Positions 2,440 to 9,756 are shown, numbered from the stretch's first letter. The stretch is 64,000 nt of DNA from Desulfatiglandales bacterium (GCA_963662465.1 OY759599.1:3968001-4032000), one strand, 5' to 3'. Program-made: numbers and translations. The notes: generated by a model not told the origin, from the sequence alone.

Positions 2440-4925
2440 TTATTTCTCATCCAAAACCTCTCGAATCGATGAAGCCAGGTTCCGTAAGTCTATGGGCTTC
2501 TCAATGTATTTGCTTACACCGAGGACTTCCGCCTTTTCTGCCGACATCCTCTCGCTGAAGCCGGTACAGATGATCACCGGTGTTTTCGGTCGAATTTTTA
2601 GAACTTCTGCTGCCAGCCTGTCTCCGGTCATTCGAGGCATGGTCATATCAGTGATGATGACATCAAATTGATCTGGATCGATTTTGAACCATTCCAGGGC
2701 CTCCACAGGTTTTGTGGTGCTTTTGATCTGATAGCCCAACCGCTCCAACCGCTGGCGGTTCAGGTTCACCAGGGACTCTTCGTCATCCACAAAGAGGATT
2801 CTTTCAGAACCCCCTCTGATTTCTCCCTCGGGCTCTTTTTCTTGCTCAGCAGTCTCTTCCAATGCGGGGAAATAGATCTCAAAGACCGTTCCCTTTCCAG
2901 GCTCACTCTCAACCCTGATGCCACCACCATTTCTCTTCACAATACCGTGAACCACCGAAAGGCCCATTCCCGTACCCTTGCCAACCTCCTTGGTAGTGAA
3001 ATAAGGGTCAAAGACTCGGTCTATGATTTTGCTCTGGATACCTTCCCCCGTGTCGCTTATTTTCAACCTGACGTAGGCGCCTGGGGATAAAGCCCAATTA
3101 AAACATGCTATTTCTTTCTGAAGGATAATCTTTTCAAGGATCACTTCCAGGAGTCCCCCTTCTTCGGACATGGCATCGGCCGCATTGGTTACCAGATTCA
3201 TTACTATCTGATTGATTTGGGTGGCATCACCCAGAACGTTACATGGATCATCAGAAATGTGCTCTTTGAACGCCACGCTGGTGGGAACGACAGATCTGAG
3301 CATTTTCATGGATTCCTTCAGGATGGGAGCCATATCTAAAGGCTTGCTCTTTTCGTCGCTCTTGCGGCTGAAAGCTAACAATTGCCGGACCATATCTTTT
3401 GCCCTGATAGAAGCCTTACGGATTTCCTTTAAAGACCCGCTTACGGGGTTCGTGTCAGGAACGTCATCAGCAGCCAGTTCCGCATTTCCGAGGATAATGG
3501 CCAGAATATTGTTGAAGTCATGGGCAATACCCCCTGCCAAGGTCCCGACGGCTTCCATTTTCCGGGATTGCAGGAGTTGCGCCTCAAGTTGCCTTTTTTC
3601 AGTTATATCAATCCAGTTGCATACCACATTCGTTAACGCACCTTCCGGATCGTGAATCGGGAACATGTTCACTTGGATACTGACGGACTTGGAACCTTTC
3701 AAATCCATCGTCGGAATATCCTCTCCATTCCAATCGGCAGTAAAATTGATGGTTTTACCTTCCTCATATACAGTACGAATAAGCGTCATCAAACCCTGTT
3801 TTTCGGCAAGCGGATCTTTAAGCATGTTGTATTTACCAACCAATTGATCATCCGTTAAATTCAGGAGTCTCTTCAAAGCAGGGTTTACGTGCTGTAAGGT
3901 TCCTTCTGGATCCGATATCCAAATTGCAAAGGGGCTTTGATCAATAATACGATAAAAGAATTTTTCCCTCGCTTGTAGCGCTTCCTCCGCTTGTTTGCGA
4001 TCGGTGATGTCCTGAGTAAAGCCAGTTCCGCGAATACATTTCCCAAGTTTATCAAAATGCAGTTCGGCTTTTTCCCTGACCCATTTAATGTCGCCATCAA
4101 CCAGCAAGCGATGTTCTATATCATAGGGCTTTTTGTCAAATGCAGCTTTCCATTCTTTATCGACGTATTCTCTGTCATCAGGATGAACGCAATTCAGGAA
4201 AGTTTCATAAGTGAGCTCCGTTCCGGTGGGAAGCCCAAATATCCTGTAATTCTCATCCGTCCACAGTAGTTCATTTTTCTCAATATCTAATTCCCATGTG
4301 CCGATGTGCCCGATCTCTTGCGCTTTCTGAAGGAAGTCTTTCTGCGTCAGCAAGGCTTTTTCAATCTCTATTCGGTCGGTTACATCATGGATGATAGAAT
4401 AAAGTATGGTTTTCTCTCCCAAATTTACAGGACCGGAATAAACTTCAACATTCCGTATCTCTCCTGACGCCAATCGATGAGGAAAGTTAAAATATAATCG
4501 CTTTTCACTCTTAGCATTTTGCATCTCTGAATGGATTTCCTCTAGCGGCAAAGCATTGATATCCGAAATTTTCAAGGTCTCCAGTTCTCTCTTGGAATAC
4601 CCATAATAATTGCACGCAGCCCCATTGGCCTCTAAAATGGCGCCACTTTCGGGATCGATCATCAGTTTTACTGCCATATTCGTCTCAAATACTTGCCGAT
4701 ATTTTATTTCGCTCTCCTTCAAATCTTCTTTTATTCTCCGCCTTTTCTTAATTTCATTTTCAAGCAGTTCTAAAGAGGTGGTCGTCTGTTGAAGCTTACT
4801 TGCCATATTATTGAATGACTTGGCCAAATTGCCAAATTCATCCTTTCTGCTCATAACGATTCTGTATCTAAAATCTCCTTTTCCAACCTTTTCCGTAGCC
4901 TTGTTGAGTATTGCAATGGGTTCAG
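2440..4925 (-). pseudogene. HAMP-PAS-PAS-PAS hybrid histidine kinase/receiver, 5'-truncated by the IS21 element
   Basis: HAMP (EPIAILNKATEKVGKGDF...DEFGNLAKSFNNM), H-box AGGIAHDFNN, GKGTGMGL and a C-terminal REC. The first ~20 aa of the track ORF (to 4986) come from the IS end, and no TM/sensor region remains. Confidence 0.75.
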
Positions 4926-5175
4926 CTTCAACGCTAATCAAAACTGAACCAAGTTTGCTAATGGAAATTGAACCATTGGCTGTCACCGCCGGTGAGTACG
5001 GCCCTCAGGTATAGCGGACGATGAGGGATCCATAAGTGGCGGCAAAGGAGTCGTTGATGTAGATTTACTTTTCAATAAATTTTTATAAAATCTATTTTCT
5101 TTGGATTTGGTTTTCTTCTTCCAAGACAGAGGCTTGGTTAAGTGGAAATGCGATTTACTTTGTAGAATGGATGGT

Positions 5176-5211
5176 GAAGGCCCGAAGTAGCCGCTTCGGG
5201 CCTTCTTTTTT
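5176..5211 (+). terminator. Rho-independent terminator inside the IS left end
   Basis: Perfect 12-bp stem GAAGGCCCGAAG/CTTCGGGCCTTC followed by T6. Confidence 0.85.
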
Positions 5212-5287
5212 GACCACCGGATAGAGCCGGAAGCCACACACACGCCAATTTTATATAAGTGTGTTTCCGGCCAATTGCAAGGCCGGA

Positions 5288-5704
5288 ATGATGGGAGATG
5301 TCCTTTTAAGAGTGGTTCAATGCCGATGTTGTGGTTGCTTTTTTCACGTCTGTCGGTCGTGTTGGCGTGGCCAGGCCTATTGTGGGGAACGATGTCGCAG
5401 GATACGCCAAAGACAGCTGCACCGGAAAGCTCAGGGGAAATACCGCAATTCGAAAAAAGGGAAAGAGCGCCGTCGTTTGTACGAAAAAACAAAAAAATCC
5501 AAAAAAAATGGACTGAACCCTGGTGATGATAGTTCAACACCTCAAAAAGACTGTGATATTGAACCCAAAAAGCGGTCGGGGAACCGACCCAGCTGTCTTT
5601 TTTGCGGGTCGATCGGGGTTGTTGTGGACCATTTTCCTCGCCGTGCTTATGCAGGGAGGGTTTTTTCAGATGTAACAGGCTTTGAGAAAACCCCATATCC
5701 ATGA
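5288..5704 (+). CDS. Cys-rich basic protein (putative Zn-binding), IS21-associated
   Basis: CRCCG...CRSCWRGQAYCGERC and a C-terminal CLFCG; K/R-rich. First gene of the cluster; start uncertain (GTG 5261 or ATG 5288). Confidence 0.65.
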   Translation: MMGDVLLRVVQCRCCGCFFHVCRSCWRGQAYCGERCRRIRQRQLHRKAQGKYRNSKKGKERRRLYEKTKKSKKNGLNPGDDSSTPQKDCDIEPKKRSGNRPSCLFCGSIGVVVDHFPRRAYAGRVFSDVTGFEKTPYP

Positions 5705-5716
5705 CAGGAGAAAAAA

Positions 5717-6136
5717 ATGATCAAAAAAAGAGTCCTTTTTCCCGAAAGAGTGCGTGTCATCAATGGAAGCTTCGGCTTTCTGGAGCATCGTTTTTTGAGA
5801 AACGGCTTTTGGGAGAGCCTGAATCATCATGAGCTGCTGCTCTACATTTTTCTGGTGTTGGTATCTGACAAAAACGGGCTCTCTTATTATGGTTACGACA
5901 GAATCTGCCGGATTTTAAAGGTGCATTTGGATCAATATATCGATGCCCGCGATGGCTTGTTGGACAAGGATCTGATTGGGTTTGATGGCCGTCTGTTTCA
6001 GGTTCTTTCGCTTCCCAGACGTCCTGTGATTGTGAAACAGGTAAAGGAGATCCGGCAAGGAAATTGGGTCAGTCTTGGAGAAACCATAGAGGAAATCTTT
6101 CGGGAGACTGGGTATGGAATCCATCCGAACCGTTGA
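5717..6136 (+). CDS. Putative winged-helix DNA-binding protein, IS21-associated
   Basis: Strong RBS (AGGAG). LLLYIFLVLVSDKNGLSYYGYDRICRIL resembles an HTH_36 / replication-initiator-like N-terminal wHTH. Confidence 0.7.
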   Translation: MIKKRVLFPERVRVINGSFGFLEHRFLRNGFWESLNHHELLLYIFLVLVSDKNGLSYYGYDRICRILKVHLDQYIDARDGLLDKDLIGFDGRLFQVLSLPRRPVIVKQVKEIRQGNWVSLGETIEEIFRETGYGIHPNR

Positions 6137-6998
6137 TATTCATTTGCTGGAGTTGCGTTACGCTCATTGCCGGATAATGAATCACCAGGCTTTAAAGCGA
6201 TTGAGGGATTCCATCGAAACTTACGGGCAGATCGTTCCGGCCCTGGCTATTGAAGAAAAAGACAAACTGATTCTGATTGATGGCTACCTGCGTGTTCGAG
6301 CGCTTTGTGCTTGTGGAAAGGACCGGATATGTGTCCAATTCTCAAAAGAAAACGAACAAAATGCCATGTTTTCGCTTTTAACCAAGGCCAATGAACGGCA
6401 ATGGGAAGTCATTGAGCAGTCTGTTTTACTTCAGGAATTACATCGGCGTTTTGGGTGCAGCCTCTCCCATATTGCAACCCGAATAGGGCGCGACAAGAGT
6501 TTTGTAAAACGGCGGCTGGACCTGGTTGAAGCCCTGCCGGAAAATATTTTGAGAACCGTGATTGCAGGCTCACTTTCAACCTGGGCTGCCAGCCGTGTCA
6601 TGGCGCCGTTGGCGCGCGCCAACGGTGAAGACGCACAAAAACTGTTGGCCCACCTGGAAAAAGAACCTCTATCCACAAGGGAACTGGCCCGTTTCTACGC
6701 ACATTACCAGAAAAGCAACCGGTCTGTTCGAGACCACATGCTGGAAAATCCATCCCTTTTCATAAAAGTTCTCGAACAAAGAACCCAGTCTAAACAAGCC
6801 AAAGAAGTTCATGATGGACCGGAAGGCAAATGGTTCAAGGATATTGAAATGGTATATGCGGTTCTCAAACGTCTGGTGAAAACCGTTTCGCATGTCCATT
6901 ACCCAAAAAGCGATCAGTTGAAGAAACAAACGCTCAAAACCTGGGTGAAAAAGATAGAAAAACAAGCACTGGAACTCAAGAAAGCGACCCAATTATGA
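6114..6998 (+). CDS. ParB/Spo0J N-terminal domain protein with HTH
   Basis: LRDSIETYGQIVP...LILIDGYLRVRAL (GxxRxxA) and HTH SLSHIATRIGRDKSFVKRRL. Stop overlaps the istA start (ATGA). Confidence 0.85.
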   Translation: MESIRTVDIHLLELRYAHCRIMNHQALKRLRDSIETYGQIVPALAIEEKDKLILIDGYLRVRALCACGKDRICVQFSKENEQNAMFSLLTKANERQWEVIEQSVLLQELHRRFGCSLSHIATRIGRDKSFVKRRLDLVEALPENILRTVIAGSLSTWAASRVMAPLARANGEDAQKLLAHLEKEPLSTRELARFYAHYQKSNRSVRDHMLENPSLFIKVLEQRTQSKQAKEVHDGPEGKWFKDIEMVYAVLKRLVKTVSHVHYPKSDQLKKQTLKTWVKKIEKQALELKKATQL

Positions 6999-8377
6999 TC
7001 CGACAATCCAAAAAAGATGCCATTGTGGAATTGAAAAAAACCGGCATGAGTTTGCGCGACATCGCCAAAACCCTGAAGGCCGGTCGCAATACCGTCACGA
7101 AGGTTTTAGATGATCATGACGAAGAGGCGGTACCCCAAAGGAACTCCCGGTATGAAGAACATGTCCCGTTGATCCGCGAGCTTTTCAAGGAATGTAAAGG
7201 AAATGCCGTGCGAGTAGCCGAGGAACTGGAAAGCCGCCAACAGATCAAAATCCCTTATCAGAGTCTGACCTGGATTATGAGAAAGTACGAGATCCGGGAA
7301 CGTAAAAAAAGACGGGCGGGCCAATACCATTTTAAACCCGGTCAGGAGATGCAGCATGATACGTCACCCCATCTGGTTGTCATTAATGGGAAAAAAATGT
7401 CGACCCAGTGCGCGTCCCTGACCCTGGCCTTTTGCCGAAGGATTTTTATTCAGTATTACCCCTGTTTTACCCGGTTTGAGTGCAAGGTTTTCCTAAAAAA
7501 AGCATTCGAGTTTATGGACGGGGTGTGTTCCCGGTGCATGGTTGACAACACCAATGTTATTGTGGCCGGCGGCACCGGGCCTGATGCATTGATTGCGCCT
7601 GAAATGAAATACTTCGGCGATATGTATGGAACCCGGTTTGAGGCCCATGCTGTAGGAGACGCCAATCGAAGTGCCCGTGTGGAAAGGCCTTTTCATTTTG
7701 TGGAAAACAATTTTCTTCCCGGTAGAACATTTGTTAGCTGGCAGGATTTGAACCGGCAGGCAATCGACTGGTGCCGGAATACAAGCGATAAAAAGTTTAA
7801 ACGGGCTTTAGGGATGACGCCGGATGAGGCCTATGTCATTGAAAAGCCATATCTCATTGATTTACCGGCATACCAGCCGCCAGTCTATGTGGCAGAACAC
7901 AGGGTAGCCGATGTTCAGGGATATGTGCACTTGGACACCAACCGCTATTCAGTCCCTGAAGCGCTGATTGGGAACTCCCTGGAAGTACAGAAACATTGGC
8001 TCAAGGTCATCGTTTACGACAAAAACACAAAAGTGGCGGAACATGACCGCATACTGGATAAACGCAACACCCGAACAACCCTGCCCGGTCACCATGTTCC
8101 CATTCGAAGAAAAAAAGATCCCCGAATCCCTTCAAAAGAAGAACAGCTGTTGACGGGAGAGGATGCCATCCTGGATGAGTATGTGGCTGAACTGAAGAAA
8201 AGAAGTCACGGTCGCGGTGTGGTCAAGTTACGTCGGTTGCTTCATCTGAAACGCACTTATCCCGGGGAACCTTTTTTGAAAGCCATAACACAGGCGCTTA
8301 AATATGGACTTTTTGATTTGTCGCGTCTGGAAAACATTATTCTCGATTATATCGCGGGAGACTTTTTTGATCTATGA
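6995..8377 (+). CDS. istA: IS21-family DDE transposase
   Basis: N-terminal HTH, PGQEMQHD / MVDNT / SARVER catalytic residues and a Mu-like C-terminal NRYSVP. Confidence 0.92.
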   Translation: MIRQSKKDAIVELKKTGMSLRDIAKTLKAGRNTVTKVLDDHDEEAVPQRNSRYEEHVPLIRELFKECKGNAVRVAEELESRQQIKIPYQSLTWIMRKYEIRERKKRRAGQYHFKPGQEMQHDTSPHLVVINGKKMSTQCASLTLAFCRRIFIQYYPCFTRFECKVFLKKAFEFMDGVCSRCMVDNTNVIVAGGTGPDALIAPEMKYFGDMYGTRFEAHAVGDANRSARVERPFHFVENNFLPGRTFVSWQDLNRQAIDWCRNTSDKKFKRALGMTPDEAYVIEKPYLIDLPAYQPPVYVAEHRVADVQGYVHLDTNRYSVPEALIGNSLEVQKHWLKVIVYDKNTKVAEHDRILDKRNTRTTLPGHHVPIRRKKDPRIPSKEEQLLTGEDAILDEYVAELKKRSHGRGVVKLRRLLHLKRTYPGEPFLKAITQALKYGLFDLSRLENIILDYIAGDFFDL

Positions 8378-9093
8378 AAAAGAAAATTGAACAGTTACTC
8401 ATTGATTTGAAGTTTAAAGGCATGCTGAAGGCTCTCGAAGAACAGTTGGCTTCGGCTGAAAAGAACGGTTTTTCCATTCACGAGGTCATCTACAATCTCC
8501 TGGCTGAGGAATTACGTTTCCGGCAGGAGCGCAGCATGATCTATCGGGTCCAGATTGCAAAGCTTCCATGGGAATGGACCCTCAACTCCTTTCCGTTTGA
8601 TCTTCAGCCGGGAATACAGAAGAGCCGGATCATGACGTTGTCCGGCCTTGACTTTATCAGCCGAAGAGAAAACATCGTGTTCCATGGAAAAACCGGCGTC
8701 GGCAAAACGGGATTGGCCGTGGGGATCCTTCGTCAAGCCATTATTGCCGGGTACCGGGGGCGTTTTTATAATGTTCAGGATTTGCTGGATCAGCTCTATG
8801 CGTCTTTGGCAGATCGGTCCACCCCGAAACTCCTCAATGCCCTTTGCAGATATGACCTGCTTCTGCTCGATGAACTGGGATACCTGACCCTCAAAAAAGA
8901 GCAGATGAACGCCTTTTTTAAACTCATGAAAGATCGCTATGAAGCCGGTCGGTCCACAATTATTACGACCAATCTTCAACCTGAACAATGGTATTCGCTG
9001 CTTGAACCAAAGGACATGGTCGATGCCTTGCTGGATCGTCTCAACCATCGCTGCATCAACATTCATATTGATGGTCCTTCCCTCAGAAAATGA
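8374..9093 (+). CDS. istB: IS21 helper AAA+ ATPase
   Basis: Walker A GKTGVGKT, Walker B LLLLDELG, IITTN, ALLDRL. Confidence 0.95.
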   Translation: MKKKIEQLLIDLKFKGMLKALEEQLASAEKNGFSIHEVIYNLLAEELRFRQERSMIYRVQIAKLPWEWTLNSFPFDLQPGIQKSRIMTLSGLDFISRRENIVFHGKTGVGKTGLAVGILRQAIIAGYRGRFYNVQDLLDQLYASLADRSTPKLLNALCRYDLLLLDELGYLTLKKEQMNAFFKLMKDRYEAGRSTIITTNLQPEQWYSLLEPKDMVDALLDRLNHRCINIHIDGPSLRK

Positions 9094-9191
9094 GATGTTC
9101 GCCAAAGGGCCGGTTTTGAGGTCTGAATATCACCGGTCTGTTTGAATCTCGTTACACGAATATCAGAAATTACCTTGTCTTGGAGCTTGAA

Positions 9192-9389
9192 ATGAGAGGT
9201 GGAAAACGGGTAGGCGCCGGCCGAAGAAAGAAACCGGAACATTTGAGACGTGAACTGCTCACCATTCGTCTCCCCAAATGGATGATTCTACAGCTGAAAA
9301 AAAACGGGGAAATTGGATATTTGATTGAGGATCAATTGGCGAAGGGAGGCCTCCTGAATTTACCGGACGACTATGACATAGACAAATAG
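9192..9389 (+). CDS. Small putative DNA-binding protein (GGxRxGAGR motif, RHH-like)
   Basis: MRGGKRVGAGRRKK...LTIRLPKW, preceded by a GGAG RBS; lies inside the right IR. Confidence 0.6.
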   Translation: MRGGKRVGAGRRKKPEHLRRELLTIRLPKWMILQLKKNGEIGYLIEDQLAKGGLLNLPDDYDIDK

Positions 9390-9756
9390 TTCCTCAATAA
9401 GCATTGCCCTTAACCGAAAAATCTAATCCCCTCTTCTCTGCCATCACCATATTGATGGTATCCTCATCACTGATTCTTCAACCAGAACGCTACGTGTCTC
9501 ACCAGCATTTTTAAAATACCATCTGATATACTCTTTCATGCAACCTCTAACAAATTTACAAGAAAACCCTTCTAAAAGGAAAAGACCAGTGCGCAATATC
9601 TGGTTCCGTTTGGAGTAGCAAAACTGGTTCCATTTTGGTTAGCGCCCAAGGAGTACTTCCATAAATCCTCACCCCAAACCGGCCAAGATCGTGCAAGACT
9701 GCCAGATGAATCTTACATTATTTGCCTTTAATTTGTTGCCAAAAATACCTGCCTGA

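Follow-up and report, generated by a model that had tools for sequence, protein, structure and literature searches.

An IS21-family insertion sequence with a ParB-like gene that contains a constrained palindrome, a candidate ParB site

The insertion sequence IS21, a structural model for transposases assisted by an AAA+ protein, is portrayed with two genes: its products are given as IstA and IstB (PMC12486865), and an older survey counts only unnamed "additional ORFs" (open reading frames) in IS21 and IS66 elements (PMC3281130). ParB-like proteins have been described from other kinds of mobile elements. KorB acts as a silencer over a distance (PMC11790492), the ParB-like clamp BisD belongs to an integrative and conjugative element (PMC12409273), ParT is reported to load at parS independently of CTP (PMC12260392), and mobile elements carry many orphan ParBs according to a 2025 survey of the ParB fold (PMC12704722); the terms "transpos," "IS21," and "insertion sequence" are absent from the main text of that survey. 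Our full-text literature searches retrieved no paper joining ParB with IS21, IstA, or IstB as one element. Here, we describe such an element from a Desulfatiglandales bacterium. It occupies positions 4926 to 9650 of a 64,000-nucleotide stretch of DNA (GCA_963662465.1 OY759599.1:3968001-4032000; the window hereafter) and carries, directly ahead of istA, a gene for a ParB-like protein with a palindrome inside its coding sequence. Comparison of related genes demonstrates nucleotide-level constraint on this palindrome and covariation across its dyad, and it is most likely the binding site of the ParB-like protein, for which it is our candidate.

An earlier note on the window had proposed a single element within one pair of inverted repeats (IRs), in which three additional genes form an operon-like run with istA and istB. 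Both statements hold. A BLAST search of the 8.16-Mb genome of the window with positions 4926-9650 recovered 21 copies without interruption, 4 that other insertions have split, and 4 fragments, each with an identity of at least 99.5%; the termini of the 25 copies coincide exactly with 4926 and 9650. The ORFs of the winged helix-turn-helix (wHTH) and ParB-like proteins overlap by 23 nt, and ATGA overlaps join ParB to istA (6995-6998) and istA to istB (8374-8377). The element, its genes, and the palindrome are as follows.

4926..9650, + strand: whole IS21-family element, 4,725 bp; 25 genome copies with identical ends, target duplications in 19 of the 25
5288..5704, + strand: Cys-rich protein; ORF open from a GTG at 5261; no Pfam, NCBIfam, or PHROG family
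5717..6136, + strand: wHTH, a small winged-helix protein; HTH_36 at 23.3 bits, below the cut-off of 25
6114..6998, + strand: ParB-like protein; HTH_ParB (PF17762) at 29 bits, above the cut-off
6606..6625, no strand: perfect 20-bp palindrome CCGTTGGCGCGCGCCAACGG with the core 16-mer GTTGGCGC/GCGCCAAC, inside the ParB gene; candidate ParB site
6995..8377, + strand: IstA, DDE transposase; NF033546 at E 1.9e-37, Mu-transpos_C_2
8374..9093, + strand: IstB, AAA+ helper ATPase; PF01695 at E 3.5e-59, NF038214 at 225 bits, above the cut-off of 200
9180..9389, + strand: small basic ORF of 69 aa; no family found in Pfam, NCBIfam, and PHROG searches

The element has the IstA, the IstB gene directly after istA, the ends, and the target duplications of the IS21 family, and it departs only from the description of the family as having two genes. 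Like canonical IS21 and IS5376, it combines an IstA with aligned D, D, and E residues, an AAA+ IstB, an istA/istB overlap, multi-site inverted repeats, and short target duplications; in a phmmer comparison with the solved IS5376 IstA (E 1e-15, residues 9-293), the D (MQHDT), D (VDNT), and E (VERP) columns are all kept. Unlike them, it has six genes rather than two within 4.7 kb, the additions being the ParB gene with its internal palindrome, the Cys-rich and wHTH genes, and the small ORF. Its IstA also falls below the curated NCBIfam cut-off for IS21 (NF033546, residues 12-292, 129 versus 160 bits), and the Pfam rve model found no match in it at E 0.01. Pfam and NCBIfam searches of the six ORFs found neither a ParA-type ATPase nor a replication gene.

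The assignment of the ParB-like protein draws on both structure and profile comparisons. Its AlphaFold2 (AF2) model, with a predicted local distance difference test score (pLDDT) of 83, comprises a ParB/Srx N-domain, an HTH DNA-binding domain, and a less confident, family-specific helical C-domain. Foldseek searches with this model retrieve Myxococcus and Bacillus ParB, Noc, and KorB at E values of 1.4e-10 to 2.5e-7, and the family profile matches ParB in the PDB at E 4e-15; the TIGR00180 score (44 bits) is below its cut-off of 58. Of the features of the ParB/Spo0J/KorB/Noc group, the N-domain and the HTH are present, and the GERRxRA box and a ParA partner within the element are missing. The box aligns to (D)GYLRxxA, in which only G57 and R60 are kept, both of them invariant in 25 family members; two further stretches remain that we take to be like box I (SIxxYGQIVP) and box III (NDRQWExIEQ). 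With GYLR in place of GERR, the CTP-dependent clamp envisaged in the earlier note is not supported, and the protein may still bind some nucleotide. The two-domain ParB fold, a 16-bp dyad as candidate site, and an orphan gene without ParA on a mobile element are shared with KorB of RK2, Noc, and BisD of ICEclc. In contrast to these, the element has GYLR for GERR and the site within the coding sequence of the protein itself, its host is an insertion sequence, and its neighbors are a transposase and an AAA+ helper. For a ParB whose nucleotide box is degenerate, ParT of plasmid SCP2 (PMC12260392) offers a precedent; unlike the protein described here, ParT works with a ParA in plasmid partition, and our element encodes no ParA.

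The palindrome lies ~370 bp before the start of istA and codes for an invariant PLARAN motif at residues 165-170 of the ParB-like protein. The codons of this motif are under synonymous constraint. In 51 non-redundant ParB genes (at most 90% mutual identity), a single codon accounts for 0.94-0.98 of the sequences at each of the six positions (mean 0.96), against a background mean of 0.51 over 78 conserved degenerate columns and a value of 0.48 in the next best six-codon window. The codons are frozen in relatives whose proteins are just 33-55% identical. PLARAN was among the peptide patterns used for fetching loci, as was a second motif, VKRRLDL; the latter is written with 4-6 codons per residue, the majority codon making up a fraction of 0.24-0.43. 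Because the codons of VKRRLDL vary freely, the way in which the loci were fetched did not create the constraint on PLARAN. The palindrome is also present in loci found by other routes (L049, L145, and L143).

A metagenome scan with the ParB alignment matched at least 598 stretches, at least 511 of which encode a relative, and the metagenome locus counts given here refer to the best 80. The perfect 16-mer is found in 51 of these 80. Symmetric variants occur as well: L143 has ATTGCGC/GCGCAAT at the same codons, which there read PIARAM, and L135 has arrived at TGGCAC/GTGCCA by two synonymous changes. A second type of ParB, 22% identical and present twice in this genome, has GTTCATAC/GTATGAAC at these codons; in a homolog from another genome, they read GTTTATAC/GTATAAAC, a compensatory pair. 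In the genome of the window, the 16-mer occurs 26 times, 25 of them within the 25 copies, so that each copy has one site. Searches within the element found no further copies or half-sites of the palindrome, a similar site was found in none of 18 IS21 loci without ParB (68,682 bases), and a search for promoter-like sites in the interval from the palindrome to istA was negative.

The additional genes are linked to the transposase over a wide range of divergence. In the metagenomes, istA lies directly 3' of the ParB gene in 61 of the 63 loci with at least 300 bp of downstream sequence, and an ORF of the Cys family lies upstream of it in 71 of the 75 loci with at least 450 bp upstream; the exceptions are remnants, in which the ParB gene is truncated, IstA breaks off at residue 98, or, in two cases, a deletion derivative is left. 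Genome loci of at least 3 kb that were found through IstA give the same picture, with the ParB gene adjoining istA in 16 of 18; in one of the other two, the upstream part has been replaced by another insertion sequence, and in the other, the contig begins at istA. The strain NaphS2, which has many copies, keeps the order Cys-rich, wHTH, ParB, IstA, and IstB at protein identities of 46, 73, 84, 86, and 92%, respectively. A locus with an IstA that is 50% identical still retains a ParB (35% identical), and the gene order as a whole is kept in relatives down to ~35-50% identity. Pairwise identities of ParB and IstA are strongly correlated across 47 loci (Mantel r 0.95, with 0 of 999 permutations as high). 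The ratios of nonsynonymous to synonymous substitution rates (dN/dS) against four relatives are 0.24-0.40 for the Cys-rich gene, 0.08-0.32 for wHTH, 0.19-0.27 for ParB, 0.10-0.17 for IstA, and 0.05-0.12 for IstB; judged by these values, all five genes are under purifying selection. The conserved gene order, the covariation of ParB with IstA, the dN/dS values, and the intactness of all 25 copies together support the view that the extra genes belong to the element and are not incidental cargo. In this respect, the interpretation of the earlier note is supported, with the reservation, set out below, that wHTH and the Cys-rich protein are not tied specifically to ParB or to IstAB.

The ParB family has 984 matches at E ≤0.001, and the best 120 of these come mostly from contigs of 1-5 kb, in keeping with a repeated element of such length. 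The gene is rare in reference genomes (4 of 400 others sampled from the phylum), and the protein has no match in a plasmid collection at E 1e-15. In two metagenome samples (L093:2715-3557 and L094:5671-6513), fusions combine ParB residues 1-264 with the C-terminal 39 residues of IstB; these deletion derivatives have retained the Cys-rich gene and the palindrome and have lost the transposase.

The region upstream of istA proves to be modular. We examined it in 23 non-self loci of the phylum sample that have a match to IstA. The Cys-rich and ParB genes are both present in 3/23, and the second ParB type is present in 2/23, both from one genome. Six loci have Cys-rich and wHTH genes without ParB, as does, for wHTH, one cut contig; a further 2/23 have only the Cys-rich gene, nothing was detected in 5/23, and 4/23 were not evaluable. 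Conversely, wHTH is found in just 8 of the 36 metagenome ParB loci with at least 900 bp upstream. The wHTH proteins are 35-60% identical between elements whose IstA proteins are only ~25% identical. Elsewhere in the genome of the window, at L170 (G000:C1:3489000-3496000) and at G000:C1:282500-289500, wHTH paralogs (58-63% identity, HTH_36 above the cut-off) come after a different Cys-containing ORF and before three consecutive tyrosine-recombinase genes, in what looks like a recombinase-trio element. The position of wHTH ahead of this trio marks it as a portable head gene of unrelated mobile elements. The tie of wHTH and Cys-rich to ParB and IstAB that the earlier note had assumed is therefore not upheld: both occur with IstAB without ParB, and wHTH also heads the element with three tyrosine recombinases. 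The pair is best described as portable DNA-binding head genes, and this fits a regulatory role.

The same pair is found in Caballeronia. On a plasmid of Caballeronia sp. SBC1 (L169, NZ_CP049160.1 171842-180141), annotated istA and istB genes of the IS21 family follow two overlapping "hypothetical proteins" of RefSeq. These two match the Cys-rich (E 1e-16) and wHTH (E 2e-24) profiles, and they are found at 9 places in 6 records from two strains. Hence, small Cys-rich and wHTH genes recur at the head of mobile elements, although even in cultured Caballeronia their annotation is hypothetical.

The genome of the window holds further types of IS21. A second ParB-bearing type (L171, G000:C1:6813482-6818096, with a second copy near 8094473-8099087) is 22% identical in ParB, 31% in IstA, and 35% in IstB; it also encodes a homolog of the small ORF and a protein whose CHC2 zinc ribbon is of the DnaG type (PF01807), has a palindrome of its own in the ParB gene (GTTCATACGTATGAAC), and is without a Cys-rich ORF upstream. 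In a third type (G000:C1 5957719-5961404, 6818591-6822276, and 7836042-7839727; IstA 23% and IstB 28% identical), a tandem pair of small-ORF homologs (75% identity) separates the match to IstA from that to IstB. In a quick IstA tree, which has long branches, elements with a ParB of either type group in one clade (SH-aLRT 97), and the elements with only Cys-rich and wHTH genes form another (SH-aLRT 93).

What the ParB-like protein might do for such an element can be framed as a proposal to which we would give slightly less than an even chance: the complex of the element-borne ParB with its site would control the supply or the activity of the transposase. The operon is read one way and is translationally coupled, running from the Cys-rich, wHTH, and ParB-like genes through IstA and IstB to the small ORF, with a terminator after the left end that likely bars transcription from outside. 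IstA and IstB carry out the chemistry of transposition and the capture of the target, as they do in IS21 and IS5376. A dimer of the ParB-like protein would most likely bind the dyad site in its own gene and build a nucleoprotein complex on every copy of the element. As ParB from all copies would bind all copies, transcription into istA-istB, or else the activity of the transposase, would be held down. This negative feedback would scale with copy number and would allow a burst of transposition in a naive host, a control logic closer to that of KorB or Noc than to that of a partition system. The placement of the site in the path of transcription, with no promoter-like site found from there to istA, suggests a damping of istA-istB expression or activity. 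A large and mostly uncultured branch of IS21 always comes with a ParB-like protein. If ParB binds the site, insertion sequences would be able to control or mark themselves in a way that has not been described for such elements, and the ParB fold would gain a new working context.

Several observations weigh against this proposal. With 1.3 kb between the presumed promoter and the palindrome downstream of it, the site would be an unusual operator, and the reading GYLR in place of GERR makes a KorB-like sliding doubtful. The 29 of the 80 metagenome loci that are without the perfect 16-mer keep 6 or 7 of the 8 symmetric pairs, with 1-2 broken, and position 5 is altered in 18 loci, of which 8 have the change on a single side and 10 have a T/T pair from changes on both. 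The palindrome could instead fold as an RNA hairpin; here, the self-complementary dyad centre in both ParB types fits a dimer on double-stranded DNA better than a hairpin, whose loop could vary. Since canonical IS21 and IS5376 need only IstA and IstB (PMC12486865), the extra genes may also be dispensable. Finally, contigs from RNA libraries (4 runs, all from one study) span the greater part of an element with 95-99% similarity, accessory genes included, and are at most compatible with expression, as levels and strand cannot be read from them and carry-over of DNA is possible. Contig breaks near the palindrome in three of the runs allow no interpretation.

Among the alternatives, one is that the element marks itself. 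ParB at the internal site, perhaps spreading from it, would act on IstB or IstA such that copies and their surroundings are spared, or target capture is steered, by a logic like that of MuA-MuB or ParB-ParA. We regard this as unlikely. It would account for the exactly one site on each of the 25 copies, for the translational coupling of the ParB gene to istA, and for the single clade formed by ParB-bearing IstA proteins in the quick tree, and no copy was found inserted into another copy of itself. However, the nearest copies are ~25 kb apart, which is the chance expectation for 25 copies in 8.2 Mb, the N-terminal ParA-type peptide is absent, there is no sign of contact with IstB, and canonical IS21 is described with two genes only (PMC12486865). 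Of comparably low probability is that an insertion sequence has co-opted a partition-type ParB and a centromere-like site for self-recognition, with ParB talking to IstB as in the ParB-ParA and MuA-MuB pairs, copy number being sensed, and targets being spared or steered. If this were true, it would be the first ParB-parS system inside a transposition machine. There is a certain likeness to phage Mu and Tn7 in the Mu-type C-terminal barrel of the transposase, the AAA+ partner, and an internal cis site away from the ends, and a difference in that no site-specific targeting is seen here. In Mu, moreover, both the enhancer and immunity work through the transposase itself and are not known to involve a ParB protein.

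An architectural role, in which the ParB-site complex would pair the ends of a long insertion sequence or would hold or condense a circular intermediate until integration, we consider rather improbable. Such a function would suit the length of the element, about double that of IS21 elements in textbooks, the fixed internal position of the site in two clades of ParB, and the presence in the same genome of IS21 relatives with primase-type parts. Against it, the BLAST survey of the copies in the genome saw neither a circle junction nor a tandem copy, the element is without a ParA and without a replication initiator, and most of its ParB-bearing relatives do without wHTH (present in 8/36).

It is more improbable again that the additional genes are passengers with a role unrelated to transposition, such as interference with the ParB systems of hosts or plasmids or antidefense, and that they persist by aiding the survival of the element or its host. 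The modularity of the wHTH and Cys-rich genes, which are found with other types of recombinase, would be in keeping with this, as would the many orphan ParBs on mobile elements that the ParB-fold survey reports (PMC12704722). The near-obligate linkage and the codivergence with IstA over a wide range, the overlaps between the genes, and the presence of a cognate-looking site within the element itself are all contrary to it. A Tn7-like selector, in which wHTH or ParB would recognize a chromosomal site and recruit IstB, as the earlier note had suggested, has its sole support in the analogy with TnsD/TniQ plus TnsC and is largely refuted, and we hold it to be very improbable, in that the 19 insertion sites with duplications have no motif in common, show no defined attachment sequence of the Tn7/TniQ type, and are found in both orientations all around the chromosome; if there were a hidden preference for certain structures or regions, many more sites would be needed to reveal it.

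The ends of the element and the leader that follows the left end contain the following features.

4926..4979, + strand: left terminal inverted repeat, with two 19-nt direct repeats (4933-4951 and 4957-4975)
5176..5210, + strand: terminator-like hairpin of 13 pairs with a T-run, between the left end and the first gene
9597..9650, + strand: right terminal inverted repeat, with two 20-nt direct repeats (9600-9619 and 9624-9643)

The terminal inverted repeats are imperfect (CTTcaaCGCTAAtCAAAAc / CTTgggCGCTAAcCAAAAt), and each end has two direct repeats of 19-20 nt with a spacing of 24 bp. Those of the left end are presumed binding sites of IstA; such a multi-site layout is usual for IS21 ends. The first 54 bp of the left end are 85% identical to those of the NaphS2 relative, and the remaining leader is not conserved. 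Target duplications flank 19 of the 25 full copies (8 bp in 8 copies, 9 copies with 7 bp, 1 with 6, and 1 with 5). With 25 copies at least 99.5% identical and these short duplications, the element has been recently active.

The 6 copies without a target duplication include that of the window. Among them, a single pair of flanks matches, that of the copies at 5347739 and 6067428 (ATAAGGG, left versus right flank), and this pairing, of which the window copy is not a part, shows that recombination between copies has taken place. In the window, a gene for a hybrid histidine kinase (2440-4986, minus strand) is cut by the element at its HAMP domain, and the other half was not found beyond 9650. A cut kinase gene without its second half and the lack of a target duplication suggest a later rearrangement between element copies; recombination of this kind would explain why the N-terminal half of the kinase is missing past 9650.

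In the leader, a 36-bp piece over the terminator-like hairpin is 92% identical in the NaphS2 element, where the flanking leader DNA is not conserved, and the hairpin likely shields the operon against outside transcription. Its 3' arm (5195-5204) is complementary at 9 of 10 positions to 5279-5288, which holds the likely ribosome-binding site and the start codon of the Cys-rich gene, and a perfect 8-nt inverted repeat (5265-5272 / 5281-5288) brackets the start of this gene. The complementarity may provide translational control of read-through transcripts.

The Cys-rich protein itself has an AF2 model (pLDDT 78) with a two-hairpin N-terminal zinc ribbon of four Cys residues, two long basic helices, and a C-terminal CxxC hairpin. 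A fold search gave no match at E ≤0.001, the best being the YacG zinc finger at E 2.9, and the 30 matches in the ESM Atlas all belong to unnamed clusters. It can be linked by hhalign (90% probability, E 1.7e-6, 53 columns) and by its common gene position to a larger clade of upstream ORFs, with the signature CxxC...YCSxxCQ followed by YR/WR repeats. The small ORF at the other end of the operon is a variable accessory gene: it is present in close relatives and in 7 of the 80 metagenome loci and absent from the NaphS2 element, and further homologs in the genome (65-79% identity) either lie within two other types of IS21 or stand alone.

The only perfect palindrome 16-mer outside the 25 copies is at G000:C1:3732981-3733252, where it lies ~10 bp before a degenerate stretch that resembles the left end and ~250 bp before a 26-bp, 92% match to the right end. 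This locus may be a miniature or remnant relative of the element, although it is a single copy and its ends cannot be set. Two copies of the element (G000:C1:1533098-1539753 and 5974616-5981271) share an insertion of ~1.9 kb that is nested at element position 365-374, where the Cys-rich gene begins, and one of the two is flanked by a clean 7-bp duplication. The composite has thus moved, presumably with help in trans.

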